Shown here piece after piece: positions 1,197 to 31,569 of a stretch of 32,000 nt of DNA. Below the pieces are notes generated by a model. The model was not told the origin of the DNA. It saw only the letters and a program-made list of their open reading frames with translations, and searched no databases. Source of the stretch: Corynebacterium amycolatum (GTDB taxonomy: Bacteria > Actinomycetota > Actinomycetes > Mycobacteriales > Mycobacteriaceae); assembly GCF_049243625.1 (NCBI RefSeq), contig NZ_CP046975.1; one strand, given 5' to 3'. Numbering within the stretch: the first letter of the stretch is position 1; every line of letters starts with the position of its first letter. The position numbers and the translations under genes are program-made.

Positions 1197-2840
1197 TTAA
1201 TTCGTTTTCTCAGCCTGCTTGCGCAGCTGCAGCACCTTTAGCGAGCAGAGGAAACCGATAGTTAGCGCACCGACGGCGGAATACAGCGCAAACTGTGTGG
1301 CATGTGCAAACGCATTTGTCAGCGGGATCAATACAGCGTCGGAAGCGCCCTGCGCCCGCAGACCAATCAGGATAGAGCCGGCGGAATCCTTCAGCCCCTG
1401 CCCCATCTGCTCCAGTCCCGGCGACAACTTCGCAATCTCGCGATCCAGCCCAATCGTCAACGCCATACCACCGAGTGCCGCACCGAGAGCAGAACCAATC
1501 TGCCGGATTGTCGACTGCGTCGCCGACGCCTGTCCCGACAGACGCACCGGAATATCGCCGAGCACCAGCGAGGTCAGTTGCGCCGACGCCAGGCCAAGGC
1601 CCAGACCGTAGATAATCAGCGCAAACACAACTAGCCACAACGGCAGGCCAACACGCTCTTCCGCCGCCAACTGCAGCGAACCAAAGACCTCGAGCCCCAG
1701 CCCCACAATCACGACACCGGCCGGGGTGATCCGGGCTGCTAGATGACGCGCCATGGCACCTGCGAAAAACGCGCCGAGAGCCATCGCTGCCAGGACCAGG
1801 CCAGTTGCAATCGTCGACAAGCCAATCGCCGACACCAAGTAGAGCGGCAGCACGAAGACCAGCGCGAACTCACCCACCGCGACGAGCATCGCCGTCGTAT
1901 TCCCCCAGCTAAACGTGGCGTAGGAGAACATCGACACGTCCAACAGCGCAGGATCCGCGTTCTTCCGACGACGATTCTCCCACAGCACGAAGGCGACGAG
2001 CACCACCGCACCAACCAAGAGCGTGACGACGGGCGCGGAGGGAAAAGCAAACCCAATCTTGGCACCCTGAATGATGCCGAAGACGACGGCACCAAAGCCG
2101 ATTCCAGATAGCAGCAGGCCGAGAACGTCGAAACCACCAGCGCCATTGGTCTCGCCCGCGGTGTTCGGCACCCAGCGCAGCGCAAGGAGGAAAAGCACCA
2201 CGGCGATGGGCACATTGACCCAGAAGATGGCTTCCCAACCAGCGAATTGAGTAAGGACGCCACCCAAGAGCGGGCCGACTGCTGCGGCACCGGACATGAC
2301 CGCACCCCAGATGCCGAATGCGGTGGCGCGATCTTTGTCACGGAACAGTGCGTTAACGCTGGACAGTGTCGACGGCAGAATGCACGCGCCACCAATGCCC
2401 TGGATAACGCGGGCTATGACCAACGGGGCCAAGGATGTGGAAAGCGCGGCCACAACGGAGCCGCCCGTGAAGATGACCAGACCGACGAGAAAAAGGGTTC
2501 GACGGCCAAAGCGGTCACCAGCACGGCCAGAGGTTAGCAGCAGCGCGGCGAAGACGGCGGAGTAGATAGTGGTAATCCACTGCGCACCGACGATGTCGAG
2601 GCCCAGCTCCGAAATGATAGTCGGCAGTGAGACACCAACAATGGTGCCGTCGAGGACAATCATGCCTAGGCCAACCGCAAGCACGAGCAGGCCCCACCAG
2701 CGCTGTGGCGAGGCCGAGAACTCAGCAATCTGATCCTCGTTGGCGATTGCCGTGACGGCGGTGCCCTCCGCTTTCTCTGTAGCACCGGGTTGTGCGTCGG
2801 CTGAGACGTCGGCGCTGCTCAAGGAAGGTTTCGTACTCAT
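1197..2840 (-). CDS. MFS transporter, DHA2 (14-TMS, EmrB/QacA-like) family
   Basis: ORF 1197..2960. It is highly hydrophobic with MFS motifs (LDGTIVGVSLPTI, GRAGDRFGRR) and about 14 TM segments. The ATG at 2840 (MSTKPSL...) is preferred over the upstream ATG at 2960, which adds 40 non-membrane residues; the start is uncertain. Confidence 0.8.
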   Translation of the reverse strand: MSTKPSLSSADVSADAQPGATEKAEGTAVTAIANEDQIAEFSASPQRWWGLLVLAVGLGMIVLDGTIVGVSLPTIISELGLDIVGAQWITTIYSAVFAALLLTSGRAGDRFGRRTLFLVGLVIFTGGSVVAALSTSLAPLVIARVIQGIGGACILPSTLSSVNALFRDKDRATAFGIWGAVMSGAAAVGPLLGGVLTQFAGWEAIFWVNVPIAVVLFLLALRWVPNTAGETNGAGGFDVLGLLLSGIGFGAVVFGIIQGAKIGFAFPSAPVVTLLVGAVVLVAFVLWENRRRKNADPALLDVSMFSYATFSWGNTTAMLVAVGEFALVFVLPLYLVSAIGLSTIATGLVLAAMALGAFFAGAMARHLAARITPAGVVIVGLGLEVFGSLQLAAEERVGLPLWLVVFALIIYGLGLGLASAQLTSLVLGDIPVRLSGQASATQSTIRQIGSALGAALGGMALTIGLDREIAKLSPGLEQMGQGLKDSAGSILIGLRAQGASDAVLIPLTNAFAHATQFALYSAVGALTIGFLCSLKVLQLRKQAEKTN

Positions 2841-3118
2841 AGGATTAATGCTAGAAGTGTCCAAGCACTGATTCATCAACCGAAAGTCGTAATTTTCCGG
2901 AGCTTTGGTTCGTTGAGCACGGGAGACGCTTTGCTTCATCGAGCTCAGAGATGAGGGCATCGAGAACGCGGGACAACTTCTTTGAATCCGCGCAATGGCA
3001 GCAGAACCTGCTGGCTATAGGGCTTTTATCACCACGCAGTGGCAGATTGCTATGATGCTATGAGGTCTCGGGCGCTAATTAATAGCGCTTAATTGCCGCT
3101 TCGCAGTGCCCGAGCCTT

Positions 3119-3192
3119 GCCCCTATAGCTCAGTCGGTTAGAGCAGAGGACTCATAATCCTTTTGTCCCAGGTTCGAGCCCTGGTGGGGGCA
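3119..3192 (+). tRNA. tRNA-Met (anticodon CAT), elongator type; tRNA-Ile2 (lysidine) cannot be excluded
   Basis: Cloverleaf read by eye. Acceptor GCCCCTA/TGGGGGC, D-arm AGCTCAGTCGGTTAGAGC, anticodon loop CTCATAA, T-arm CCAGG-TTCGAGC-CCTGG, discriminator A. No encoded CCA. The anticodon stem lacks the three G-C pairs of initiator tRNA. Confidence 0.9.
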
Positions 3193-3195
3193 CTA
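3151..3195 (+). repeat. attL: element-proximal copy of the 45-bp direct repeat (3' half of the intact tRNA-Met)
   Basis: ctcataatccttttgtcCcaggttcgagccctgGtgggggcacta matches 9382..9426 except at positions 3168 and 3184. Confidence 0.85.
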
Positions 3196-4084
3196 CCGCA
3201 CCTACCGCGTCCTGCAGCGACACGGACAGGTGTTCGAGGTCACCTGCCACTACCCCCGCGTAATGCCGGAGCGTAGTGGTCGCATCAGCGTGTCCAAGGT
3301 GCGCTGCAACAACCTGCGGAGCAACACCCGACCGCAGTGCGAGGGTCGCGCAAGTATCACGGAGCGCATGAGGAGTGATTTTCCTCACACCCGCACGGGC
3401 ACACGCAGGCTGTAATGCCCTTGCCGTCCAGTTCGTCCTGTGCACCGGAGTACCAACAGCCGAGGTAAACAGCAGCTCGGTTTTACAGCTGGCGGCGCAC
3501 ACTCGCAGTCGCTCCATCACAAAACGCGGGAGGTACACCCGACGACGCTGATGCGTTTTGCCGTCAGAGCGCAGCCACCCGCCACCACGAGCAGGGATAA
3601 GACCGCCCGAGACCATGATGTACTCATCGTGCACCGACGCGGGTTTTAGAGCTGTAACCTCGGAAAATCGCAAGCCCCCGTAGACCAAGACCTCAAAAAT
3701 CAGCAGGTCACGACCAGACAGCTGTGCGGACACTCGCTGTACCTCATCCGGGGAAAGCGGGTCAGGCAGCGCCCTAGTGGCAGGCGGCATTTTCACTAGC
3801 TTCGCCGGCGAGGACTTCACATAGCCCTCAATCTCCGCCAGCCGGTACACCTGGCGAACAATAGAAAGCGACTGTCGCACCTGGTGGTAGGCGTGGGGCG
3901 CAGCCTCTATCACCCAACCCTGCACATCTCGGTAAGTGATTTGATCGAGACGGAAACTTCCAAACACAGGCTGTAAATACTGCTCCAGCAACCAGCGGTA
4001 ATCCTCAGCGGTTTTCTCTGCAACAGGATGCATCGACAGCCACTCAGCCGCATAATCGCTAAAATACGGTGCCTGACCAGCCAC
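3152..4084 (-). CDS. int: Tyrosine recombinase / phage-type integrase
   Basis: 310 aa. Catalytic signature GGLRFSEV (Arg), HALRDT (H-x-x-R), LGHADATTTLRHY (His and Tyr). GTG start at 4084 overlaps the xis stop by 1 nt (TAGTG). The last ~14 codons are antisense to the tRNA 3' half. Confidence 0.9.
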   Translation of the reverse strand: MAGQAPYFSDYAAEWLSMHPVAEKTAEDYRWLLEQYLQPVFGSFRLDQITYRDVQGWVIEAAPHAYHQVRQSLSIVRQVYRLAEIEGYVKSSPAKLVKMPPATRALPDPLSPDEVQRVSAQLSGRDLLIFEVLVYGGLRFSEVTALKPASVHDEYIMVSGGLIPARGGGWLRSDGKTHQRRRVYLPRFVMERLRVCAASCKTELLFTSAVGTPVHRTNWTARALQPACARAGVRKITPHALRDTCATLALRSGVAPQVVAAHLGHADATTTLRHYAGVVAGDLEHLSVSLQDAVGAVVPPPGLEPGTKGL

Positions 4085-4260
4085 TATTTTTCACGCACCC
4101 TACCAGACGCATACGCGTCCACACTCTCAGGGACATAACGAACGAGCTCGCCAACCTGCATATACCGCGGACCAACACCACGGTCACGCCACCGCATGAG
4201 AGTCTGACGGGACACACCCAAACGGCGAGACACCTCGCCGGGGGTCAAAAGGGAAGTCAT
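4084..4260 (-). CDS. xis: Excisionase / MerR-like helix-turn-helix DNA-binding protein
   Basis: MTSLLTPGEVSRRLGVSRQTLMRWRDRGVGPRYMQVGELVRYV is a typical Xis-type HTH. It lies directly upstream of int and is translationally coupled to it. The ATG at 4260 is preferred to the TTG at 4287. Confidence 0.75.
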   Translation of the reverse strand: MTSLLTPGEVSRRLGVSRQTLMRWRDRGVGPRYMQVGELVRYVPESVDAYASGRVREK

Positions 4261-4313
4261 TTGTAAACCAACTTTCAAAAGAAACAAAATCAGAACTAAA
4301 ACAAGGTAAAGGT

Positions 4314-4333
4314 GCGCCCGCCGTAGCGGGCGC
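4314..4333 (-). terminator. GC-rich hairpin followed by a T-rich tract on the minus strand, between the tra operon and xis-int
   Basis: gcgcccgc-cgta-gcgggcgc is a perfect 8-bp stem. The minus strand continues acctttaccttgttttagttctgattttgtttcttttg. A second hairpin, aggggc-tttc-gcccct, lies at 4429..4444. Confidence 0.4.
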
Positions 4334-4463
4334 GGTCAATGAGGAGACACAAGAAACTGCAGGGATACCCGACCTAGACGACGGAGAACAAAACCACCTG
4401 GTCACCCGCCCTATCGGGGCAGGGACAAAGGGGCTTTCGCCCCTCTGTACACCCCTCTGTGGA

Positions 4464-4910
4464 CTAGGCAGACACCAGACGCACAACGCACCGACCAGAG
4501 GTCACCGCACCTGTGGTGCGATTCACATCCTCATAGGCCAGGCAGATGCGCTCCGTAGGGGCGGCATACCTAGCCGTAACCGGAGAAACCTGCAGGTCAA
4601 CCGGGTTTTTCGGCATACCGTACAGGCGCTCCTCACTTTCCAAAACCTCTCGCGCCTGCACACAACTCCGCTCCCGAGCCTCGTCGATGTACACACTGCC
4701 GGACGGCTGATAGTTACAGTCTCGCTCTACACGGGCACGAGCGCGGTCAATACGACACTGCCCAAAATCCTGAAACAGACCGCCGCATTTTTCCGGCTCC
4801 CCCGGAGTCACGTTCTCTGGTGCCTGGTCACCACCACCCTGAGCAACCACCAGACCGATACCAGCGAACAGCGCGAGCACACCGCCAGCGATTTTCCGCC
4901 CCCTACTCAT
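4464..4910 (-). CDS. Hypothetical secreted or membrane-anchored Cys-rich protein (148 aa)
   Basis: The N-terminus MSRGRKIAGGVLALFAGIGLVVAQGGG looks like a signal peptide or anchor. The mature part has six Cys. The ATG at 4910 overlaps the stop of the FtsK-like ORF (GATGAGTAG). No family recognised. Confidence 0.55.
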   Translation of the reverse strand: MSRGRKIAGGVLALFAGIGLVVAQGGGDQAPENVTPGEPEKCGGLFQDFGQCRIDRARARVERDCNYQPSGSVYIDEARERSCVQAREVLESEERLYGMPKNPVDLQVSPVTARYAAPTERICLAYEDVNRTTGAVTSGRCVVRLVSA

Positions 4911-5787
4911 CAGACTCACCTACTAGTGGAGTGTGCTGATCGAAGACGTACCGCCCGATGCGGTCGTAGTACTCGTCATAGTCCATATCCGGAGACTGAA
5001 ACCAGGTGAAATCCGGCTTGCCGATTTCGCGAAGCACACCGCGACCTGGCTGTAATGCAATCATTCGAGCAACGACCTCGGGTTCTACCTGGTCAAACAT
5101 CATTTTGATGCTGTCCGTGTTGTCCTGCGCGTAGGAGATTCGACGACCATACTGCGACCGGTCATGCAACGTTTTCGCTTCCGCACGCTGCAGAATCGTA
5201 AAAACGCGAATGCCGACCTTTGCGCCCTCGCGGAGTAGTCGACCGACAGCGCCAGTAAAAGATGCTGCCTGCTTTTTATCCCAGGCGGTCATCGACTCAA
5301 TCAAACCGGAATATTCCTCAAGCACGCAGAAAATGATTGGCTGGCTTACCGAGAAGTCGTCGATTTTCTCTCGGCGACCGAGGTTCGCCATGCGGCTTTC
5401 CATTTCGGCTACCACCGCGTTAACCAGCGCAATTGCCGCTTTTAACGACGCTTCTGAGGTACCAAGAACAAAGTCCTGCGGTCTGCCGGAATACTCCCAC
5501 CAGGGGCGCAATAACCCAAAGGCGGGGTCGATGCCAACTACCTGAATATCGGAGTGTTTTGCCAGCTGAATTAAAATCGATTGGCTGCCCTTACTTTTAC
5601 CTGAGCGGGTGATGCCCGCAATAAACGTGTGGTAAGACGCATATGGGTCGAAACATACGAGATGTCCGTCCTCGTCCTGCGCCCACCAGAGGGGTGCCCC
5701 TGTATCAGTCAAGGAAATCGACCCCCAGCTTCTTCTCAAAAGCATCACGGGTGATGGCATACAGGCGCATTTGACCAGGACGCTCAC
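4903..5787 (-). CDS. FtsK/SpoIIIE-family DNA translocase ATPase domain (TraB/TraSA-like), lacking its own membrane anchor
   Basis: Walker A is FIAGITRSGKSKGS and Walker B-like is IIFCVLEEY. The maximal ORF overlaps the upstream ORF by 83 nt in another frame. The real start is unclear: ATG 5760, ATG 5745, or TTG 5712 overlapping the upstream stop. Confidence 0.8.
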   Translation of the reverse strand: MSVLVKCACMPSPVMLLRRSWGSISLTDTGAPLWWAQDEDGHLVCFDPYASYHTFIAGITRSGKSKGSQSILIQLAKHSDIQVVGIDPAFGLLRPWWEYSGRPQDFVLGTSEASLKAAIALVNAVVAEMESRMANLGRREKIDDFSVSQPIIFCVLEEYSGLIESMTAWDKKQAASFTGAVGRLLREGAKVGIRVFTILQRAEAKTLHDRSQYGRRISYAQDNTDSIKMMFDQVEPEVVARMIALQPGRGVLREIGKPDFTWFQSPDMDYDEYYDRIGRYVFDQHTPLVGESDE

Positions 5788-6229
5788 GCTCTACCTGGTA
5801 GTCGCGAACCCCCTCAATATCTGCGTACGCGCCGAGCTTTTCGACACCCTCACGAAAACCCTTTTCGCTCATACCCTGTGGGAGCCTGCACACCAGGGCA
5901 ACCCCACGGGAATCTTTCAGGCGACGGACTACGGTCGGGGTCAGCCGTGACACCTCTTGCTTTTCCTCGCCATCTTCAGTGCGCACTGTGCGGACCGTTT
6001 CGACGTAGCAGCCGACCGCCTCCAGTGCTGTATGCAGCTTTTTATCCGTGCCGAACCTGCGGAAAAATTCGCGCTCGCCCGCGCGAAGATCGTCCTTATC
6101 ATCCTTGCTCAGTCCATGTAGCTGCTGGCGGTTTTCACCCCACGACTCAGCCAGGCTGATTACCGCAAGGATGCCGCCGACAATCAGCACAAGGAGAAAC
6201 AGGCTTCCAAAATCGATGCCATTACTCAT
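5705..6229 (-). CDS. Membrane-anchored protein resembling the N-terminal (TM plus linker) part of an FtsK/TraB-like translocase
   Basis: MSNGIDFGSLFLLVLIVGGILAVISLAE forms one TM helix. The C-terminus ends ...MRLYAITRDAFEKKLGVDFLD immediately before the ATPase domain in a different frame. The ATG at 6229 has GGGGAGG upstream and overlaps the preceding stop by 8 nt. Confidence 0.6.
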   Translation of the reverse strand: MSNGIDFGSLFLLVLIVGGILAVISLAESWGENRQQLHGLSKDDKDDLRAGEREFFRRFGTDKKLHTALEAVGCYVETVRTVRTEDGEEKQEVSRLTPTVVRRLKDSRGVALVCRLPQGMSEKGFREGVEKLGAYADIEGVRDYQVERERPGQMRLYAITRDAFEKKLGVDFLD

Positions 6230-6491
6230 TTTCAGCGCCTCCCCACAGACCAGCCGCAGCCTCGTCACGTCCGCGAGCGGTCAGAGTGAGGCGCTCGATT
6301 TCGGGATGGAAATAGTCGCGCTCTCCATGAACCCAACCTCGGCGGATAAGCTCCACTACGACCTCTCCTATCTCCATATCCGACACGTCAGACATGCAAA
6401 TAAGTAGCTCGCCATAGGTCATCGGAAAACCCTTGGACAGCCACTCTTCTAGCAGTCCTACAATTTGCCGCTCAATCGATATAACGCTCAC
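6222..6491 (-). CDS. Small winged-helix-like DNA-binding protein (89 aa), hypothetical
   Basis: GTG at 6491 with GAGGA 4 nt upstream. VSVISIERQIVGLLEEWLSKGFPMTYGELLICMSDVSDMEIGEVVVELIRRGWV resembles a MarR/ArsR-type wHTH. The domain call is by eye only. Confidence 0.5.
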   Translation of the reverse strand: MSVISIERQIVGLLEEWLSKGFPMTYGELLICMSDVSDMEIGEVVVELIRRGWVHGERDYFHPEIERLTLTARGRDEAAAGLWGGAENE

Positions 6492-6597
6492 AGCGTCCTC
6501 CAATCTTATTTTGGGTGGAATACCTTTTTGGTGATTCCTAGTCGCTCCCCCAACCACTCGCCGGGGGATGCGGTACAAACCACCAGACAAAAGCGGC

Positions 6598-6972
6598 TTA
6601 GCGAGCTAGCTGCTCGGAGAAATCCACGACCTGCTGCAGCTCACCGATGCGAAGCGTAGGGCGCATTTCCGCGAACGTGCTGTCACGGTCAGACGAGGCG
6701 CGCACCACCAAGTCGCAGTTTTTTCCAGCCGCAAGCAACTTGCCTGCAGGCAGTGCAAACGGCTCGGTGCTCTGCACAGTGACCGTCATCTGCTGCCCCT
6801 GCCACAAAGCAGGAACGTCCGCGATGCGGTGAATCTCACCACCGTCATCATCAAGCGCGGGCTTGTCAGTCGGACGCCGATTTTCCCACTGCATCATCTG
6901 GCGAGACTCCGCATCAGCAAGAACCACCAACTTCACGCCTGCAGCCGGAACAGTAAACGAATTGAGCGCCAT
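6598..6972 (-). CDS. Hypothetical protein (124 aa), first gene of the tra-side operon; possibly a Pra-like activator (speculative)
   Basis: ATG at 6972 with GAGAGGAAG upstream. MALNSFTVPAAGVKLVVLADAESRQMMQWENRRPTDKPALDDDGGEIH... has no TM segment and no motif I can assign with confidence. Confidence 0.5.
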   Translation of the reverse strand: MALNSFTVPAAGVKLVVLADAESRQMMQWENRRPTDKPALDDDGGEIHRIADVPALWQGQQMTVTVQSTEPFALPAGKLLAAGKNCDLVVRASSDRDSTFAEMRPTLRIGELQQVVDFSEQLAR

Positions 6973-7139
6973 TTTGGCTTCCTCTCTACTAAACAAAACG
7001 GACCACATCCGCCGTTCCCGTTTGGAACTATTTGTAGTATATCACACTTCTTGTTTCGCTCGCTCCAAAATGTACCACCCGGCACATGTGAGCGCAACAC
7101 AAAGAATCAACCTGCTAGATTTGTACCGCCCGCATCACA

Positions 7140-7145
7140 TAGACT
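7140..7145 (+). promoter_or_regulatory. Candidate -10 box (TAGACT) for a leaderless transcript of the 7153..7572 gene
   Basis: A TANNNT hexamer ends 7 nt before the ATG at 7153, and no Shine-Dalgarno is present. This arrangement is common for leaderless actinobacterial mRNAs. Confidence 0.3.
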
Positions 7146-7152
7146 CAGCCAC

Positions 7153-7572
7153 ATGAGCACTAGCGACTACCGCCGACTGGCGCAAGAAAAAGAAGATGCA
7201 ATCCGCGAACTGCAAGCCCAAATCGAGCACACTCGCGACATCATCGAAGCCAACCGCGAAGCCTTAAAGACGCTCACTAGCTTGGCTTTTGCCGACTTCG
7301 GCGTACCACAACGCCGAGTCGCACAGTGGGCTGGAGTATCGCCGACGCAAATCCACCGGTGGAACAAGGAAGTCCAGGAATCCCTGGCAAATCGTCACAG
7401 TGACGATAAACAGTCCGACGTATCTACCACCGCCAACACTGATTTTGTACCTAAAATTTTCGACGCCCGGCAATCCGGTCACACCGAGGAGATAACCGAG
7501 ACGGAACAAGCAAAAATCGAAGCCAGATACAACCGTGACGCACTACTGCGTCGCCTGGCGGAGAGTAACTGA
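7153..7572 (+). CDS. Helix-turn-helix regulator (139 aa), the only plus-strand gene of the element
   Basis: MSTSDYRRLAQEKEDAIRELQAQIEH... (coiled coil) is followed by FGVPQRRVAQWAGVSPTQIHRWNKE (HTH). It is divergent from the 6972 operon. Its 3' end overlaps the rep 3' end by 30 nt. Confidence 0.6.
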   Translation: MSTSDYRRLAQEKEDAIRELQAQIEHTRDIIEANREALKTLTSLAFADFGVPQRRVAQWAGVSPTQIHRWNKEVQESLANRHSDDKQSDVSTTANTDFVPKIFDARQSGHTEEITETEQAKIEARYNRDALLRRLAESN

Positions 7573-9279
7573 TCCGCGCATACCCACCGGCAGTTTTTTA
7601 TCGCCTGAACGATACGCATTTAGCGCCCTGAACAGGTCTTTTGCCATACCTGGTGCATCATCCATCAGTAACCACCCCGCACGCCATTTACCCAGCATGC
7701 GGCGTTTTGTACCAAACTGCGCATGCGCCCAGCGGGCGAGAACTCGTCCGAAAAAAATCATTTCATCAGCAGTGATTAGTGCCACAGCCATAACTTTTTT
7801 CAGTCCAAAAACGCCCCAAAAACGCCCGATGCCCGCACCCGACTCAATCCACTGCGCAGGCGCAACATTCTGATACCCCTTTGATCCACCATCCGCGCTT
7901 TTCGCCGCATACTTTGAAAAATAAAAACTTGCATGACGCGAGGACTCAAAACTCTGCCGCGTGTGGTGCACACCAGTGCCCGCCATCAGATGCCGCGCAC
8001 GCTCCCCCGAGCTTTGATCGGCAGCAACAATTTTTGCCCATGTCGCAGCAAGCCAGCCAGTAAAATCCACCTGCACCTTTTCGCTGGTCACAGGGCTTTT
8101 CACGGTACACGCCCCCTCTGGCACCACCATCAAAAGATGATAGTGAGGGGCACCCCTACGCTGGAACTCACGCTTCCACACTCCCAGCAGCTCGCGTCCC
8201 CAGTCACGCTGAAACTGCAACCTCAACCGATTCAGGTGCGCATACACGGTTTTTGCATCGGGAGCGACCGCCTGCCAATCCCCCGGATACGTCAACGTCA
8301 CCATGGCGATTTCGCCAGGTTGCTCCAAAAACGCGTTCCAGTCCAATTCGGAAAACGTTGCAATCATTCGAGTGCGCGATTTTTGCGACCACTCAGTAAT
8401 TCGACGGTCTTCCTCGCGTCGCTCACAAGCATCCAGCTGCTCTAGGTAGACCGCCCATTTTTCATGTTCGTGCTGGTTATGGGCGTTTTTCAGGTTCTCG
8501 GTTGCCATCCTTTTTAGAGTCGGCAGAGTGCCCTCTGCCAGCTCTCGGGCATGCCTCAGCGACTCCAGCGCCGCATCCAGCTTTTCCGCAGCAGGGATAA
8601 CCCCAAGCCCCCGCCACTCGCGCATCAGTACCGTGTGCTCACGAATCGCATCCGCACGGACATCTACGTCCGTCGAGGTATCCAGTACGCCCTCTAGCTC
8701 GGTTAGCCGACGCTCTACCGCCACAACGCGCTCTTTATGCCGCGCACGTTCCCTCTCAATCTTCAACAATGCCTTTTGCTGATCTTGCATCTTGCGGTCA
8801 CGTTCCCGTGCCCGCTCATCCCTCTTCTCCCGAAGATTAAAATCGTAGGCACCCAGCCTCAGTAGCGCCGGGGAAATTTGAATCGTCGCCACTTTCCCCT
8901 CTTCCCCTTCCCACGTCCGTGAGGTCAACGTTTCCGCCGCGTCCCGGCATTCTTCTACCGTGGGAAATCCCCTATCTACCTCGGAGTTTTCCTCCCGGGT
9001 GCGAATTTGTCGTGTTTTGGCACATATGGATAAACCATGTGCCAGCTCGTCGCCTGCGGCTCCTCGCCACGCCCCGCCGTCGGCTACACCTACGCTACCG
9101 CGCGCGGTCGCTCCCACACCTACCGCGCCACTCCGCTGCCGCGGGCGCTTGCGCATGCGACCTTCGGTCGTTCGCGCGCCCTTGCCCCTGCGCTCTGCTC
9201 CCGGCTCGTCGCTGCACACGTCCACTACGGCTCCGCCTGGCTGGGCAGTGGGGGTAGAAAACATTTTCGACAACTGCAT
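7543..9279 (-). CDS. rep: Replication initiator, RepSA/pSAM2-like HUH rolling-circle Rep with a long N-terminal extension
   Basis: Core motifs are MVTLTYPGDW, GVWKREFQRRGAPHYHLLMVVPEG (HUH = HYH) and FYFSKYAAK (candidate catalytic Tyr). The N-terminal ~290 aa are Arg/Gly-rich and then coiled-coil. The true start may be internal. Confidence 0.8.
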   Translation of the reverse strand: MQLSKMFSTPTAQPGGAVVDVCSDEPGAERRGKGARTTEGRMRKRPRQRSGAVGVGATARGSVGVADGGAWRGAAGDELAHGLSICAKTRQIRTREENSEVDRGFPTVEECRDAAETLTSRTWEGEEGKVATIQISPALLRLGAYDFNLREKRDERARERDRKMQDQQKALLKIERERARHKERVVAVERRLTELEGVLDTSTDVDVRADAIREHTVLMREWRGLGVIPAAEKLDAALESLRHARELAEGTLPTLKRMATENLKNAHNQHEHEKWAVYLEQLDACERREEDRRITEWSQKSRTRMIATFSELDWNAFLEQPGEIAMVTLTYPGDWQAVAPDAKTVYAHLNRLRLQFQRDWGRELLGVWKREFQRRGAPHYHLLMVVPEGACTVKSPVTSEKVQVDFTGWLAATWAKIVAADQSSGERARHLMAGTGVHHTRQSFESSRHASFYFSKYAAKSADGGSKGYQNVAPAQWIESGAGIGRFWGVFGLKKVMAVALITADEMIFFGRVLARWAHAQFGTKRRMLGKWRAGWLLMDDAPGMAKDLFRALNAYRSGDKKLPVGMRGSVTLRQATQ

Positions 9280-9381
9280 AATGAAAACACCTAGTGTAAT
9301 AGGAGGAAATTTTTACAAAACGGCGGTTACCTAAAACCGCAGGTCAGCCCCGCTCCTCATTTTTGAGTAGCGACTCACTAC

Positions 9382-9426
9382 CTCATAATCCTTTTGTCGC
9401 AGGTTCGAGCCCTGCTGGGGGCACTA
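9382..9426 (+). repeat. attR: distal copy of the 45-bp repeat (orphan tRNA-Met 3' half)
   Basis: ctcataatccttttgtcGcaggttcgagccctgCtgggggcacta. The upstream sequence has no acceptor or D-arm, so this is only a tRNA fragment. Confidence 0.85.
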
Positions 9427-9543
9427 AATGCCCTGGTGAGAGAACTTCCGCGGTTCGACTACCGGGGCTGTTCCCTTTTTGTTCCCTATTTCTCGTCGCC
9501 TGTTTTCTTGTCGCACTCTAGTCTCGGAACTGTCCCCGCCCGC

Positions 9544-10116
9544 TCACGCCCACTTACCCGACATCCGGTTGTAACAGCTGGCACACAGGGAGATGTACTT
9601 CGGCGCTTCGAGTGCCTCAATTTCCACGGTCTCGCCGTCGAGAATAATGCTGCCGTCCGGGTTTAACCGCGCCGTAAAGATGGCCTTCTGCCCACAGGTG
9701 CAAATTGTCTTAATTTCCTCAATGGTGTGGGCGACTTCAAGCAATCGCTGGGAGCCCGGGAAGGCATGCGTGCGAAAGTCGGTACGCAGGCCATAGCAGA
9801 GCACCGGAGTACCGCGAAGGGTAATGCCCAGCAACTGGTCAACCTGGTCAGGGGTGAGAAACTGTGCTTCATCGATGATTAGGCAATCGTGGCCGTCGGC
9901 AAGCGAGGAAAGGTCATCGCCGTCGTGGATGAGGTGCGCGCGTTCCGCAATTCCGATGCGGGAGTGCACGTCGCCGTCAGCCAAAGTATCCACGGCCGGT
10001 TTGGCGATCAACGGTCGCATATCGCGCTCGCGGTAGTTGTGGGCGACGCGAAGGACCTCGATGGATTTTCCGCTGTTCATGGTCCCGTAGCGGAAGTACA
10101 GTTTTGCCATAGCCAT
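9544..10116 (-). CDS. tdk: Thymidine kinase
   Basis: MAMAKLYFRYGTMNSGKSIEVL (P-loop), IIDEAQFL, and the C-terminal Zn ribbon CTCG...CASC. Start taken at ATG 10116 rather than the ORF-track start at 10182. Confidence 0.9.
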   Translation of the reverse strand: MAMAKLYFRYGTMNSGKSIEVLRVAHNYRERDMRPLIAKPAVDTLADGDVHSRIGIAERAHLIHDGDDLSSLADGHDCLIIDEAQFLTPDQVDQLLGITLRGTPVLCYGLRTDFRTHAFPGSQRLLEVAHTIEEIKTICTCGQKAIFTARLNPDGSIILDGETVEIEALEAPKYISLCASCYNRMSGKWA

Positions 10117-10204
10117 CGATTGTAGGGCATCGATTCGCGGGCTCTGACAGGCGTGAAACCGGGCGGCCAACGCGGATTTCAATTCGCGACTATCCTATAT
10201 TTTT

Positions 10205-11209
10205 ATGCAGCCGAATCCTGACCTGAATGAGAATCCAACCGTCGTTGTATGCGGATCGATCCACCTAGATACCCTGGTCCAGGTCGATAGCGTCCCCGCC
10301 GAAGGTGGCACGCTCATCGTTGATGACGGCACTAATTCGCTAGGCGGTAAGGGCGCTAACCAGGCCGTTGCCATTGCTTACGACGGTGTCCGTGCTGTCA
10401 TGGCCGGTACGGTTGGTGAGGATCGCGCTGCGGACGTCGTGGTCGAGGAACTCAACGCACACGGCGTAGATGTCCACTCCATTAAGACTTCCTGGGATTT
10501 GCCGACCGGCAGCGCTTTCGTTGCAACGAACCGCAAGGGCCGCCCGGTCATTTTTGTCCAGCGCGGTGCCGACGCACTGACGGACCCCACCGATTTCGTC
10601 GATGAGTTCGCATCAGCGGATGTCGTGCTCGCACAGGGCGAGCTCCTCCCGGAAGCAACTGAGGCCATCGCGTCCGTCGCATCCATGTACAGCGCGCGAC
10701 TGGTACTGAACCTCAATCCGGTCGTAACCGTTACACCTGCGCTGATTGACCATGCAGATCCGCTGATTGTCAATATGAAGGGCGCCTGGGAAACAATCCG
10801 TCGCCTGGACATCGCCGAGGGTATCCGCGCTACCGACTACCGCGCACAGCTCGAGGCACTACTGCAGTACTGCCCCAGCGTCATCATGCTCCGCGGCGAC
10901 CACGGCTGTCTCTTCGCACAGCACTCCGACGGTATCGATGACGAGCCGACAATCTACGAGCACCCCGCGCTCAAGCTGCCAGAGGAGAAGATTGTCGACG
11001 GCACTGGCTCCGGCGATGCGTTCGTCGGCACGCTCACCGCGGAACTGGCTAAGGGTACCTCGCTTTACGACGCCATCCCTCTGGCCACCGCCGCGGGTGC
11101 AGCAGCCGTACAGGCGGTCGGCGCATGCTCCGCGTTTGTCCGCCGCGAGAAGCTGCTAGAGATGGTCGAGGCGGAGGACTTTCCCCAGATTAAGGAGTAC
11201 GAGGGCTAA
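10205..11209 (+). CDS. PfkB-family carbohydrate kinase (ribokinase-like)
   Basis: 334 aa with GGKGANQAVA near the N-terminus and DGTGSGDAFVG near the C-terminus, the PfkB signatures. Confidence 0.8.
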   Translation: MQPNPDLNENPTVVVCGSIHLDTLVQVDSVPAEGGTLIVDDGTNSLGGKGANQAVAIAYDGVRAVMAGTVGEDRAADVVVEELNAHGVDVHSIKTSWDLPTGSAFVATNRKGRPVIFVQRGADALTDPTDFVDEFASADVVLAQGELLPEATEAIASVASMYSARLVLNLNPVVTVTPALIDHADPLIVNMKGAWETIRRLDIAEGIRATDYRAQLEALLQYCPSVIMLRGDHGCLFAQHSDGIDDEPTIYEHPALKLPEEKIVDGTGSGDAFVGTLTAELAKGTSLYDAIPLATAAGAAAVQAVGACSAFVRREKLLEMVEAEDFPQIKEYEG

Positions 11210-27320: not shown

Positions 27321-27325
27321 AATTG

Positions 27326-27397
27326 CTCCTCCAGCTGGACTCGAACCAGCAACCCTTCGATTAACAGTCGAATGCTCTGCCATTGAGCTATGGAGGA
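27326..27397 (-). tRNA. tRNA-Asn (anticodon GTT)
   Basis: The reverse complement is TCCTCCATAGCTCAATGGCAGAGCATTCGACTGTTAATCGAAGGGTTGCTGGTTCGAGTCCAGCTGGAGGAG. Acceptor TCCTCCA/TGGAGGA, anticodon loop CTGTTAA, T-loop GGTTCGAGTCC. Confidence 0.9.
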
Positions 27398-29517: not shown

Positions 29518-31449
29518 CTACTCAAATACAACCTTGACCGCCTCTGCTTGCAGTTCGCGGCGGTACTGCTCCATCGCGAGCAAATCCGCGAACAGCGTGT
29601 TGTAGGCGGTTTCGTCGTCTGAGGGGCGCATCCGCGAGAGCATCGCTTTCAGCTGTGCAATCTGGTCACCGACCCACACTTCCTGCAGTCGCGCCAGAAT
29701 CGCCTGCGCATACGGGCGCAGCGTCTCCGCATCGACAGCGATTTGCTCCACCCCCAGCTCAGTCACGAGATGCTTGACGACGTCCTCCCGCGCCTGATCC
29801 ATAATTGCGGTCGCCCAACTATGTGGCTGTGTGGCCGCTTCCCCGCAGGCACCACCTGCAGCCATGATGGCGTCGAATACCGCTCGGTAGGTCGGATGCC
29901 CAAAGGTCTCGGGTGCGAGCGCATCGAATACCGGGCCGGTGGTGGCGGGCTCCTGAATTGCCAGCTTGAGGGCCTCACGCTGCGCATAGAGCACAGGGTC
30001 CCGCGGATTTGGATACGGCAGTGCCGAGTTGCGCCGGCGCCGCGCTTCCTCCACCTCTTCGCGGGCACGGGCCTCTTCTTGGCGACGCTGGTAGGGAGTG
30101 CGTTTTTCGCTCTGTGGCCGACTGGCCTCCTCGCGGACACGCTGTACCAGCTCGGCCTCATCATTCCAGCCGATCCAGCCGGCAACTTCGCGGGCATACT
30201 CATCGCGCAGCGCCGCGTCCTTGAGCTGGGCCAGGACAGGCACCACGCGGCGCAGCCCGGAGACCCTGCCATTAGCGGTGGTCAGGTCGTAGTCGGCCAG
30301 AAGCGTGCGGAGGACAAATTCGATCAATGGCCGTCGTGAAGCGACGAGATCGCGCACTGCGGCCTCGCCCTTCTTCTGGCGCAAATCGCACGGATCCATG
30401 CCGTCCGGCGCGACCGCGACGTATGACTGGCCGGTGAAGTTCTGCTCCCCCTCGAAGGCGCGCATGGCGGCCTTCTGCCCTGCCTCGTCGCCGTCGAAGG
30501 TGTAGATGAGTTCGCCGCGGAAGAAGTTGTCGTCGAGCATGAGACGGCGCAGCAGCTGGAGGTGTTCCTCGCCAAAAGCGGTACCACAGGACGCGACGGC
30601 CGTGGTCACACCCGAGGCGTGCATGGACATGACGTCGGTGTAGCCCTCAACGATCACGGCCTGGTGGCCAGCGGCAATGTCCTTCTTGGCCAAATCCAGG
30701 CCGAAGAGCACCTTGGACTTCTTGTACAGCATGGTCTCGGGAGTGTTCATGTACTTGCCCAGGTTGTCATCGTCGAAAAGCTTGCGGGCACCGAAGCCGA
30801 TGACATCGCCGGACATATTGCGAATCGGCCACATGAGACGACGGTGGAAACGATCGATCGGCCCCATCCGCCCCATCTTGGAAAGACCCGCCTTATCCAG
30901 CTCTTCGAAGCTGAAGCCCAGACGCTGCAGGTGCTTGGTTAGAGTGTCCCAGCCGGCCGGCGAGTAGCCACAGCCGAACTGTGCCGCGTGCTCGGCGGTG
31001 AATCCACGGTTTTCCAGAAACTCTCGCGCGGGTGCTGCCGCTGGCGTGGAGAACTGTTCGCGGTAGAACTTCTGTGCCTCGCGGTTTGCGGCGATGAGAC
31101 GCTGTCGGGTTCCCGGTTCCTCGCGACGACCTGTGCCGCCGCCCTCATAGTTAATGTGGAAGCCAATTTTCTCCGCACAGGCTTCGACAGCCTCCGGGAA
31201 AGACAGGTGTTCCATCTCCATGAGGAAGCTAAATACATCACCGCCCTTGCCAGTGGAAAAGCAGTGGTAATAGCCATGATTGGGGCGTACGTGGAACGAC
31301 GGCGTGCGCTCGTCCTTAAAAGGCGAAAGCCCTTTCAGAGAATCCGCGCCAGCCGGTTTGAGGTTCACGTATTCCGCAACGATCTCCTCAATCGGAGTCC
31401 GCTCGCGGATCGCCGCGATATCGGAGTCCGGAATTCTTCCCCTAGCCAT
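29518..31449 (-). CDS. dnaG: DNA primase
   Basis: From ATG 31449: MARGRIPDSDIAAIRERTPIEEIV. Zinc ribbon ..PFKDERTPSFHVRPNHGYYHCFSTGKGGDVFSF.., and a TOPRIM region EGYTDVM...DGDEAG. Confidence 0.95.
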   Translation of the reverse strand: MARGRIPDSDIAAIRERTPIEEIVAEYVNLKPAGADSLKGLSPFKDERTPSFHVRPNHGYYHCFSTGKGGDVFSFLMEMEHLSFPEAVEACAEKIGFHINYEGGGTGRREEPGTRQRLIAANREAQKFYREQFSTPAAAPAREFLENRGFTAEHAAQFGCGYSPAGWDTLTKHLQRLGFSFEELDKAGLSKMGRMGPIDRFHRRLMWPIRNMSGDVIGFGARKLFDDDNLGKYMNTPETMLYKKSKVLFGLDLAKKDIAAGHQAVIVEGYTDVMSMHASGVTTAVASCGTAFGEEHLQLLRRLMLDDNFFRGELIYTFDGDEAGQKAAMRAFEGEQNFTGQSYVAVAPDGMDPCDLRQKKGEAAVRDLVASRRPLIEFVLRTLLADYDLTTANGRVSGLRRVVPVLAQLKDAALRDEYAREVAGWIGWNDEAELVQRVREEASRPQSEKRTPYQRRQEEARAREEVEEARRRRNSALPYPNPRDPVLYAQREALKLAIQEPATTGPVFDALAPETFGHPTYRAVFDAIMAAGGACGEAATQPHSWATAIMDQAREDVVKHLVTELGVEQIAVDAETLRPYAQAILARLQEVWVGDQIAQLKAMLSRMRPSDDETAYNTLFADLLAMEQYRRELQAEAVKVVFE

Positions 31450-31569
31450 GAAAATAACCTTACCCAACCCGTCCAATCGACTCCGCCGTAGAGGTTTCGC
31501 TTAACGACGAGCCGCCCGCGCCCAACCCAAAAACGTTCCGGTGGCAACAGATATGGAAAGATACTAGCC

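Follow-up and report, generated by a model that had tools for sequence, protein, structure and literature searches.

What occupies positions 3151-9426 of a 32,000-nucleotide stretch of the Corynebacterium amycolatum chromosome (NZ_CP046975.1, assembly GCF_049243625.1; the whole stretch is called the window below), and could it pass from cell to cell by its own means? A first-pass annotation, made from the sequence alone, had seen in this block a compact actinomycete integrative and conjugative element (AICE) inserted in a tRNA gene, one that may be a minimal or mobilisable variant of that class. Our analysis leads us to regard it as probable that the block is an AICE-type integrative plasmid of 6,231 bp with rolling-circle replication, present here in its integrated form and probably active.

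The left end of the block lies within a tRNA gene with anticodon CAT (3119-3193, + strand; ARAGORN, with an Rfam tRNA score of 69.4 bits), which is the integration target. A repeat search of positions 2000-11000 recovered a 45-nt direct repeat at 3151-3195 and 9382-9426, identical at 43 of 45 positions and with a start-to-start spacing of 6,231 bp. This is far beyond chance since all other repeats in the same region are at most 30 nt long and 64-86% identical, and it bears out the earlier claim, also upheld by ARAGORN and Rfam, that such a repeat brackets the block in a tRNA gene. The left copy, the 45-bp attL core, begins in the anticodon loop (CTCATAA) and extends to the tRNA 3' end plus two nucleotides; the right copy, the attR core, is the displaced original 3' part of the host tRNA. 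The two mismatches between them (C at 3168 versus G at 9399, and G at 3184 versus C at 9415) affect both partners of a single T-stem pair and are therefore compensatory, leaving the T-arm foldable from either copy. The attR core has the G...C allele, which is also that of attB in the empty strains described below, and the attL tRNA has the attP-type C...G allele of the element from 3168 onward. Because the attB allele now stands at attR and the element allele at attL, strand exchange falls in the 17 nt of 3151-3167, from the anticodon loop to the variable region, and by this allele comparison the 3' part of the present tRNA gene is element-derived from about position 3168 on. Both T-stem alleles are native in C. 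amycolatum strains (C...G in L007, L010, L012 and L014; G...C in L006, L008, L009, L011 and L013), and the attP of the element therefore carries a natural tRNA allele. The core also has a coding function: the final 14 codons and the stop of the integrase gene lie on the complement of the tRNA 3' half, inside the att core (3152-3195, - strand), so that the T-stem alleles alter two integrase residues in relatives (P to A and G to A in L098).

Querying with the exact protein of the neighbouring thymidine kinase (tdk, 9544-10116, - strand) brought up ten NCBI loci. L005 (GCA_054653755.1) is 100% identical to window positions 1-20116. L009 (CP068168.1), L013 (CP008913.1) and L006, by contrast with the window, lack exactly 6,231 bp and retain a single core, with the tRNA 5' half, the G...C core variant and the tdk-side flank following one another at base level; a search for such empty sites was the check that the first-pass annotation had set beforehand. 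Flank identity to the window is 99.88% in L009 (3,195 nt), 99.99% in L013 (10,735 nt) and about 99.2% in L006, and in L009 and L013 the two flank alignments overlap by exactly the 45-nt core. Since just these 6,231 bp are missing from near-isogenic genomes, the element is a separate insertion whose gain or loss is very recent, and we consider it almost certain that 3151-9426 is a discrete integrated mobile element.

The circular junction that the first-pass annotation had also proposed to look for is found in related elements (L093, L098 and L099), not for the window copy. Exact-protein look-ups in ENA led to this int-att-rep junction in three independent metagenome assemblies. Two of the contigs are circularly permuted, their ends overlapping by 119 bp in L093 (6,090 bp) and by 55 bp in L098 (5,967 bp); in each, a single core lies between the int 3' end and the rep-proximal end. 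The third, L099, has the same single-core int-rep junction; over 174 nt it shares 97% identity with the attP expected from the window, which would run through GGTAGTGCCCCCACCAGGGCTCGAACCTGGGACAAAAGGATTATGAG directly into GTAGTGAGTCGCTACTC. Read as assembled, the circular contigs are probably excised forms of related elements; a tandem array would assemble alike. The ends of L099, TGTGTATAAGAGACAG at the start and CTGTCTCTTATACACAT at the finish, are what we take to be Nextera transposase adaptor, and the assembly therefore holds untrimmed adaptor. Three Logan contigs of 5,987, 5,941 and 6,267 bp were considered as further circles and rejected, as each end reaches 28-30 nt into the 45-bp core; the ends of L001, L002 and L118 fall inside the core because the assembly graph breaks at the repeat around an integrated copy.

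All genes of the element but one lie on the - strand, all are intact, and the catalytic motifs of integrase, initiator and ATPase are all legible; in NCBI records, where their products are listed under Corynebacterium amycolatum, these genes carry generic annotation. Next to attL, the tyrosine integrase (310 amino acids; 3152-4084, - strand) matches Phage_integrase (6.5e-19), Phage_int_M (5e-11) and SAM_3 (6e-7) in Pfam as well as the PHROG integrase family (1e-45). Its motifs LRFSE, HALRD, LGH and RHY can be read in the translation, and its relatives are 90-92% identical. The excisionase Xis (4084-4260, - strand; 58 amino acids from the ATG at 4260, the mechanical open reading frame (ORF) extending to 4287) matches Pfam HTH_17 (8e-10) and the PHROG excisionase family (3.7e-8), with the NCBIfam model 'excise' at 7.7e-6, slightly under its cut-off; relatives are called at 58-60 amino acids. 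The integrase and Xis named in the first-pass annotation are both confirmed by these matches.

At the opposite end of the element stands the HUH rolling-circle initiator Rep (578 amino acids; 7543-9279, - strand), which matches Pfam REP_ORF2-G2P (PF23343) at 3.4e-12 and 47 bits against a gathering score of 27.8, and the PHROG replication initiation family at 1e-4. Its motifs are AMVTLTYPGDW, RRGAPHYHLLM and, at the catalytic position, Y453-FSKY, and in an alignment of 27 Rep sequences the three rolling-circle motifs (AMVTLTYPGDW, RRGAPHxH and Y453-F-x-K) are invariant. The long Rep ORF is real, since its N-terminal 170 residues are conserved even with mycobacterial homologues; the Corynebacterium clade has in addition a coiled-coil insertion of about 110 amino acids at residues ~170-290. 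The first-pass annotation had described a RepSA-type HUH initiator. The HUH Rep stands, but the RepSA label applies at superfamily level only: Rep has no match to RepSA PF20199 at E<=0.1, and all 27 aligned relatives match PF23343 while 13 of them also match RepSA weakly (best 2.3e-6).

More relevant to the question of transfer is the mini FtsK/SpoIIIE motor encoded at 4903-5745 (- strand; 280 amino acids in the NCBI call, with the mechanical ORF extending to 5787). It carries Walker A GITRSGKS and Walker B VLEE and matches Pfam PF01580 FtsK_SpoIIIE at 28.3 bits against a gathering score of 24 and the PHROG FtsK/SpoIIIE-like family at 3e-17; it has no Zot match. In an alignment of 32 members of this family (A1), most are ~260-280 amino acids long and a few are N-terminally extended, Walker A (GxTRSGKS) and Walker B (LEE) are invariant, and there is no additional C-terminal domain. 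Single-protein sequence searches against the PDB were non-significant for both the motor and Rep. The motor family profile, on the other hand, matched EccC (5e-13), FtsK (4e-12) and the coupling protein TcpA of pCW3 (2e-11) in the same database, and an AF2 model of the motor (pLDDT 90.8) gave the E. coli FtsK motor 2ius as its top Foldseek match (E 9e-14, TMq 0.69), with EccC and TcpA next (TcpA at 1.5e-11). The profile searches suggested beforehand for integrase and FtsK thus matched both families, as did the fold search for FtsK.

Directly upstream of the motor, orf174 (174 amino acids; 5705-6229, - strand) begins with a transmembrane segment (residues 2-31), behind which lies an alpha/beta domain of about 100 amino acids. 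A gene of this type likewise stands directly upstream of the motor in L001, L002 and the Rhodococcus plasmid pREC02, with a 4-nt overlap in L001 and pREC02. A word-indexed search found two close homologues and exhaustive HMMER eight. The orf174 family aligns with the pre-motor region of fused homologues of 377-489 amino acids (hhalign probability 94.2%, E 1.2e-7), several of which start, as read from their sequences, with hydrophobic stretches. From this match together with the synteny we infer that orf174 is the detached N-terminal part of a TraB-like translocase, the pump being split into a membrane anchor and a motor. The FtsK/SpoIIIE assignment of the first-pass annotation holds, but its single-protein translocase gives way to a 280-aa motor with a separate 174-aa membrane partner.

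Where else does this backbone occur? Rep homologues 76-98% identical to that of the element are present in C. amycolatum, in other Corynebacterium isolates and on many short Logan, ENA and JGI contigs, and a scan with one genome per species returned 76 Rep loci, chiefly in Mycobacteriaceae. A tblastn search of plasmids found Rep and motor homologues, 27-40% identical (Rep 30-40%), on small actinomycete plasmids, and the two occur together on ones of 4-8 kb. Rhodococcus erythropolis pREC02 (5,444 bp) keeps the gene order of the element, with small ORFs, the transmembrane partner, the motor, an Xis-like helix-turn-helix (HTH) protein, Rep and a convergent small ORF. Streptomyces sp. X335 pDYM4.3k (4,346 bp) has the same Rep family with an annotated Pra-like activator, a 445-aa FtsK protein and SpdD. 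Further, a motor homologue on a large Streptomyces plasmid lies inside a module of GntR, FtsK, replication initiator, HTH and integrase genes, which is the pSAM2 arrangement. The Xis-like protein of pREC02 (L015 2908-3189) is 36% identical to the element Xis (E 0.003) and stands there with no integrase, which suggests either loss of an integrase or common ancestry with integrative forms. Apart from orf174 and Xis, the small ORFs of the element have no similarity to Pra or SpdD of pDYM4.3k or to the pREC02 ORFs.

Integrated relatives were found among the 76 Rep loci. The Corynebacterium locus L017 holds an element built alike and inserted in the same tRNA, its cores spaced by about 6,260 bp; related elements lie in tRNA-Phe in Rhodococcus marinonascens (6,636 bp, 54-bp repeat) and in tRNA-Thr in Actinomycetospora (9,496 bp, 54-bp repeat). 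Within Corynebacterium the family spans isolates with several species labels, and it occupies the same tRNA gene wherever flanks can be read. Compared with L001, the int and rep sides are 82-85% identical and the transfer module gives one 156-bp DNA match at 74%; compared with L002 and L118, the transfer module is 86-95% identical and int about 80%. By these alignments the family is mosaic, with shuffled modules, and apparently active and recombining. L017 is labelled Corynebacterium vitaeruminis 1285_CVIT, and its transfer-module proteins are 94-95% and its integrase 90% identical to those of the C. amycolatum element. A tRNA-Asn gene lies ~9 kb from its site, and the window has the same neighbour on the same side; the L017 element would thus reflect either recent inter-species spread or a mislabelled record.

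AICEs have been defined operationally by Int, Rep and an FtsK/SpoIIIE Tra (PF01580) in one block with int at the edge (PMC3218068). We find here a recombinase at the att edge, insertion in a tRNA gene with repeats and an exact empty site, and a PF01580 protein; the AICE-like module set seen in the first-pass annotation is in this way supported, with Int, Rep and the PF01580 Tra in one block, and the element very likely falls within the definition. Like pSAM2, pMEA300 and SLP1, it combines a tyrosine integrase and Xis with a tRNA 3' target, a tRNA-derived att core and int beside att, a rolling-circle HUH Rep, and an FtsK/SpoIIIE-domain protein as the sole recognisable transfer function. In other respects it departs from them. 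At ~6.2 kb it is about half the size of these characterised AICEs, which span 10.9-17.3 kb (PMC2440964), and AICEs in a Streptomyces population measure 11.9-36.3 kb (PMC9513070). Its Rep is of PF23343, whereas those of AICEs are RepSA, RepAM or Prim-Pol; its translocase is a 280-aa motor lacking the winged helix with a 174-aa membrane partner, whereas the AICE TraB is a single polypeptide; and it has no Nudix/Pif, recognisable Spd, GntR KorSA or Pra. Its gene order also differs: in the integrated state rep stands at one end and int at the other, and the two face each other across attP. Finally, it resides in a unicellular Corynebacterium, and the supplement of a 2011 screen, as far as its listing goes, shows no AICE in the Corynebacterium genomes screened (PMC3218068).

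The closest parallels in part are the plasmids pREC02 and pDYM4.3k, with the same Rep family (38-40% identity) and the same motor family (29-33%); unlike the element, both are free plasmids lacking integrase and att site, and pDYM4.3k has its translocase as a single 445-aa protein, next to genes annotated as Pra-like and SpdD. Blon0288 of Bifidobacterium longum subsp. infantis, for which the supplement listing of Ghinet et al. 2011 is the one source of comparison, shares a tyrosine integrase, a tRNA 'Met' target, a non-RepSA Rep, an FtsK-type Tra and a non-mycelial host, but its Rep family is Rep_2. Our literature search found no paper on the element, on pDYM4.3k or on AICEs in C. amycolatum.

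Taken as an AICE-type plasmid, the element might work as follows. The tyrosine integrase and Xis would recombine attL with attR within the 17 nt of 3151-3167, releasing a circle and restoring the tRNA. The HUH Rep would nick an origin, and the circle would be replicated by the rolling-circle mode. A membrane-anchored pump made of orf174 and the 280-aa motor could then move element DNA to a neighbouring cell, as TraB and TraSA do in Streptomyces plasmids and AICEs, and in the recipient the integrase would insert the element in the tRNA gene, the attP-borne 3' half taking the place of the host's. The product of orf139, which diverges from the transfer and integration genes, is a candidate regulator. 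The sequences themselves show integration, its limits and its strain-to-strain polymorphism; for replication by Rep and transfer by the FtsK-type pair we reason from the families to which the proteins belong and from the plasmid and AICE ancestry of the backbone. Whether the element transfers itself through the FtsK-like pump is a matter on which we are nearly evenly divided, leaning slightly against.

Several observations weigh against this account. The host Corynebacterium is unicellular, and its genus has a mycolate outer membrane. TraB-type transfer of double-stranded DNA has been described only in mycelial actinomycetes (PMC2440964, PMC5704250). The TraB architecture of membrane part, motor and winged helix in one polypeptide is absent: the motor itself has neither a transmembrane segment nor the C-terminal DNA-reading winged helix of TraB, and its profile and fold scores fail to separate FtsK/TraB from TcpA. 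The AF2 model of orf174 reaches a pLDDT of 84, yet its Foldseek search was non-significant, as was the profile search against the PDB. A clt-like repeat cluster was searched for in the element and none was found. No ORF has a NUDIX or Spd match in Pfam or NCBIfam, as the first-pass annotation had anticipated in seeing no Nudix/Pif or obvious Spd genes, and none resembles the SpdD or the Pra of pDYM4.3k; as Spd proteins are poorly conserved, the Spd role could nevertheless fall to small membrane ORFs, orf151 for instance. Further, the circular contigs stem from related elements, 67-97% identical by segment, rather than from the window copy, and two patterns for the attP junction had no match in IMG/VR or JGI metagenome contigs. 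We find it doubtful that the element is a self-transmissible 6.2-kb unit that moves double-stranded DNA between unicellular, mycolate-walled corynebacteria via a two-subunit pump and no type IV system.

The alternative that survives best is an integrative and mobilisable element (IME), in which Rep would double as relaxase and the FtsK-like ATPase would take the part of a TcpA-type coupling protein, the two handing Rep-bound single-stranded DNA to a helper type IV system, a model put forward for streptococcal IMEs with an RCR-type relaxase and TcpA. The motor is devoid of a DNA-reading C-terminal domain, which TcpA likewise is not known to have, and pCW3 TcpA is among its top matches by profile (2e-11) and by fold (1.5e-11). 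The gene set of integrase, protein related to rolling-circle replication initiators and small FtsK-like ATPase equals that of 83 streptococcal IMEs, which are likewise small and integrated by a tyrosine integrase (PMC5704250), and a unicellular host and an element with no further recognisable transfer genes would also suit such a mode of life. The streptococcal IMEs differ, however, in belonging to Firmicutes, in their Rep families (Rep_trans/MobT, Rep_2 and PHA00330) and in their presumed dependence on a helper type IV system, and we found no sequence kinship between their proteins and those of the element past the common FtsK fold. The nearest relatives of Rep and motor are instead on actinomycete plasmids and in pSAM2-type modules, among them the 4.3-kb Streptomyces plasmid that also has Pra-like and SpdD genes, and this lineage favours the actinomycete plasmid side; in the fold search the FtsK motor comes out slightly ahead of TcpA (9e-14 versus 1.5e-11); and the 32-kb window contains no type IV secretion genes. 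We consider the IME reading unlikely.

Less likely again is an integrative plasmid incapable of transmission, or a remnant immobilised not long ago, in which the FtsK-like pair would serve segregation or dimer resolution and spread would be mainly vertical or by other routes. In Streptomyces plasmids, however, an FtsK-like gene is the one essential transfer gene. Transfer of the element is a prediction, FtsK-family proteins also serve chromosome segregation (PMC3218068), and MOB-suite types related small plasmids as non-mobilisable, although this typing is weak evidence because MOB-suite is blind to TraB-type systems. Against immobility, some near-isogenic strains have the element and others lack it, and the family is found under several Corynebacterium species labels with its modules shuffled and all genes intact. 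We think such a plasmid or remnant distinctly improbable.

An integrated filamentous (inovirus-like) prophage, with a gpII-type Rep, a pI/Zot-type ATPase and small membrane proteins as coat, was rejected as very improbable: the family REP_ORF2-G2P is named for plectrovirus ORF2 and inovirus G2P, 6.2 kb is within the inovirus size range, two small ORFs have N-terminal hydrophobic segments and distant Rep relatives (29-39%) do stand beside Zot-type ATPases in L112 and L113, but the ATPase matches FtsK_SpoIIIE, the PHROG FtsK-like family and the FtsK-motor fold and not Pfam Zot, which is detectable in the same way in L112 and L113, a tblastn search of 50,697 phage records found nothing for Rep, the phage-collection matches of the ATPase are FtsK-like genes only, nearly all in large Bacillus phages, and the whole backbone is common to plasmids. 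These two IMG/VR contigs (L112, 2945-4051 and 4178-5602; L113, 3432-4304 and 4823-6037) are of 6.7-6.9 kb and high G+C. Zot-type and FtsK-type ATPases both belong to the FtsK-HerA superfamily, and on these gene neighbourhoods one initiator family is combined with either a filamentous-phage extrusion ATPase or an FtsK-type ATPase.

To return to the integrative plasmid reading, a tblastn comparison with related elements shows all genes of the element kept as ORFs except orf122. The string of leftward genes begins with orf124 (124 amino acids; 6598-6972, - strand), which encodes an acidic, conserved protein, 80-85% identical in L001, L002 and L017 and called at 124 amino acids in all relatives. 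It is followed by the variable accessory ORF orf122 (6222-6590, - strand; 122 amino acids, 89 in the source genome call); L017 has it at 88% identity, L001 and L002 lack it or have an unrelated ORF, and in L093 it is uncalled. Neither has a family match; for orf122 the search covered Pfam, NCBIfam and PHROGs. Downstream of the motor, orf151 (151 amino acids; 4464-4919, - strand) encodes an N-terminal signal or transmembrane segment (hydrophobic residues 7-29) and several cysteines; its product is 54-61% identical in relatives, has no significant Pfam, NCBIfam or PHROG match and is a candidate envelope, spread or exclusion protein. The sole + strand gene is orf139 (139 amino acids; 7153-7572), which diverges from the orf124-to-int string and runs towards rep, the two 3' ends sharing 30 nt; a small ORF in pREC02 is convergent in the same manner. 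Its product, 56-92% identical in relatives, has a coiled coil followed by a weak HTH, with HTH_Tnp_1, HTH_23 and IS66 TnpA-like signals that are all sub-threshold, and may be a Kor-like regulator. Of the pair of small HTH proteins in the first-pass annotation, then, Xis is secured by HTH_17, but the 139-aa + strand protein shows sub-threshold HTH signals only.

Two non-coding regions are candidates for cis-acting functions. The region between orf151 and xis (4288-4463, - strand) contains two invariant G+C-rich hairpins, ACAGAGGGG...CCCCTTTGT and GCGCCCGC-N4-GCGGGCGC, and has a mean column identity of 81% in an alignment of four elements (A4), compared with 54-61% amino acid identity for the adjacent orf151. 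This alignment shows no covariation and the region has no Rfam match; from its conservation it is a candidate cis site, such as a single-strand origin, a clt-like site, or a terminator with a xis-int promoter. At the rep-proximal end (9280-9381, - strand), a conserved hairpin, GCGGTTTTAGGTAACCGC, lies at 9323-9340 (alignment A3, four elements). This motif is confined to Corynebacterium family members and is a candidate rep operator or double-strand origin. The pC194-type nick motif CTTGATA is absent from the element, no motif shared upstream of rep across genera was found, and an Rfam scan returned nothing beyond the tRNA. The + strand GC skew is -0.08 to -0.28 throughout 3250-9500 and near zero in most of the flanks, with similar G+C; the negative skew agrees with a gene string of one orientation and possibly with rolling-circle replication in one direction.

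The integration site has some features of its own. The target tRNA has the acceptor-stem pairs C4-G69 and C5-G68 and is without the three anticodon-stem G-C pairs that mark initiator tRNA. We take C4-G69 and C5-G68 to be the TilS identity elements of E. coli tRNA-Ile2, and the target to be closer to ileX than to elongator tRNA-Met, so that the "tRNA-Met" may be a lysidine-modified, AUA-decoding tRNA-Ile2. Four bases past attR, at 9430-9451, a 22-nt sequence, GCCCTGGTGAGAGAACTTCCGC, is 82% identical to 3178-3199, which spans the tRNA 3' end and the left junction. The empty-site strains have it too; an older integration may have left it behind, it may belong to the tRNA terminator region, or the likeness may be due to chance. 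The 3' side of the same tRNA is an insertion hotspot in other strains: L007 and L014 carry an ArsR-CadD cadmium island there, L010 a defence island with ThsB-TIR, SLATT, a ResIII helicase and an N6/N4 methylase, and L011 a pair of ABC exporters. At the site in these four loci we found no second core copy, and no integrase among the gene calls between tdk and the major facilitator superfamily (MFS) transporter gene.

The rest of the window is ordinary chromosome. The MFS transporter is encoded at 1197-2960, tRNA-Asn at 27325-27397 and the DnaG primase at 29518-31476, and the window also holds a PfkB kinase, a sugar ABC transporter, a PhoH/PIN protein, an FtsX/ABC pair, a two-component system, and aldehyde and alcohol dehydrogenases.

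The element hints at how few genes may suffice for integration, replication and transfer. To our knowledge C. amycolatum has few genetic tools, and the element is a possible site-specific integration vector for this species; its naturally split FtsK-type motor is of possible value for mechanistic work. Were it only mobilisable, it would be among the few IMEs described in Actinobacteria, as far as we found in the literature; a 2017 review counts a single canonical one there. Reviews hold FtsK/TraB-type conjugation to be confined to multicellular actinomycetes (PMC5704250, PMC2440964). A compact and apparently active family in human skin and clinical corynebacteria leaves the host range of TraB-type transfer open to a direct test, because near-isogenic carrier and empty-site strains exist. 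If the element were indeed self-transmissible, conjugation of the Streptomyces type would reach beyond mycelial actinomycetes, and a near-minimal gene set for it would be defined.

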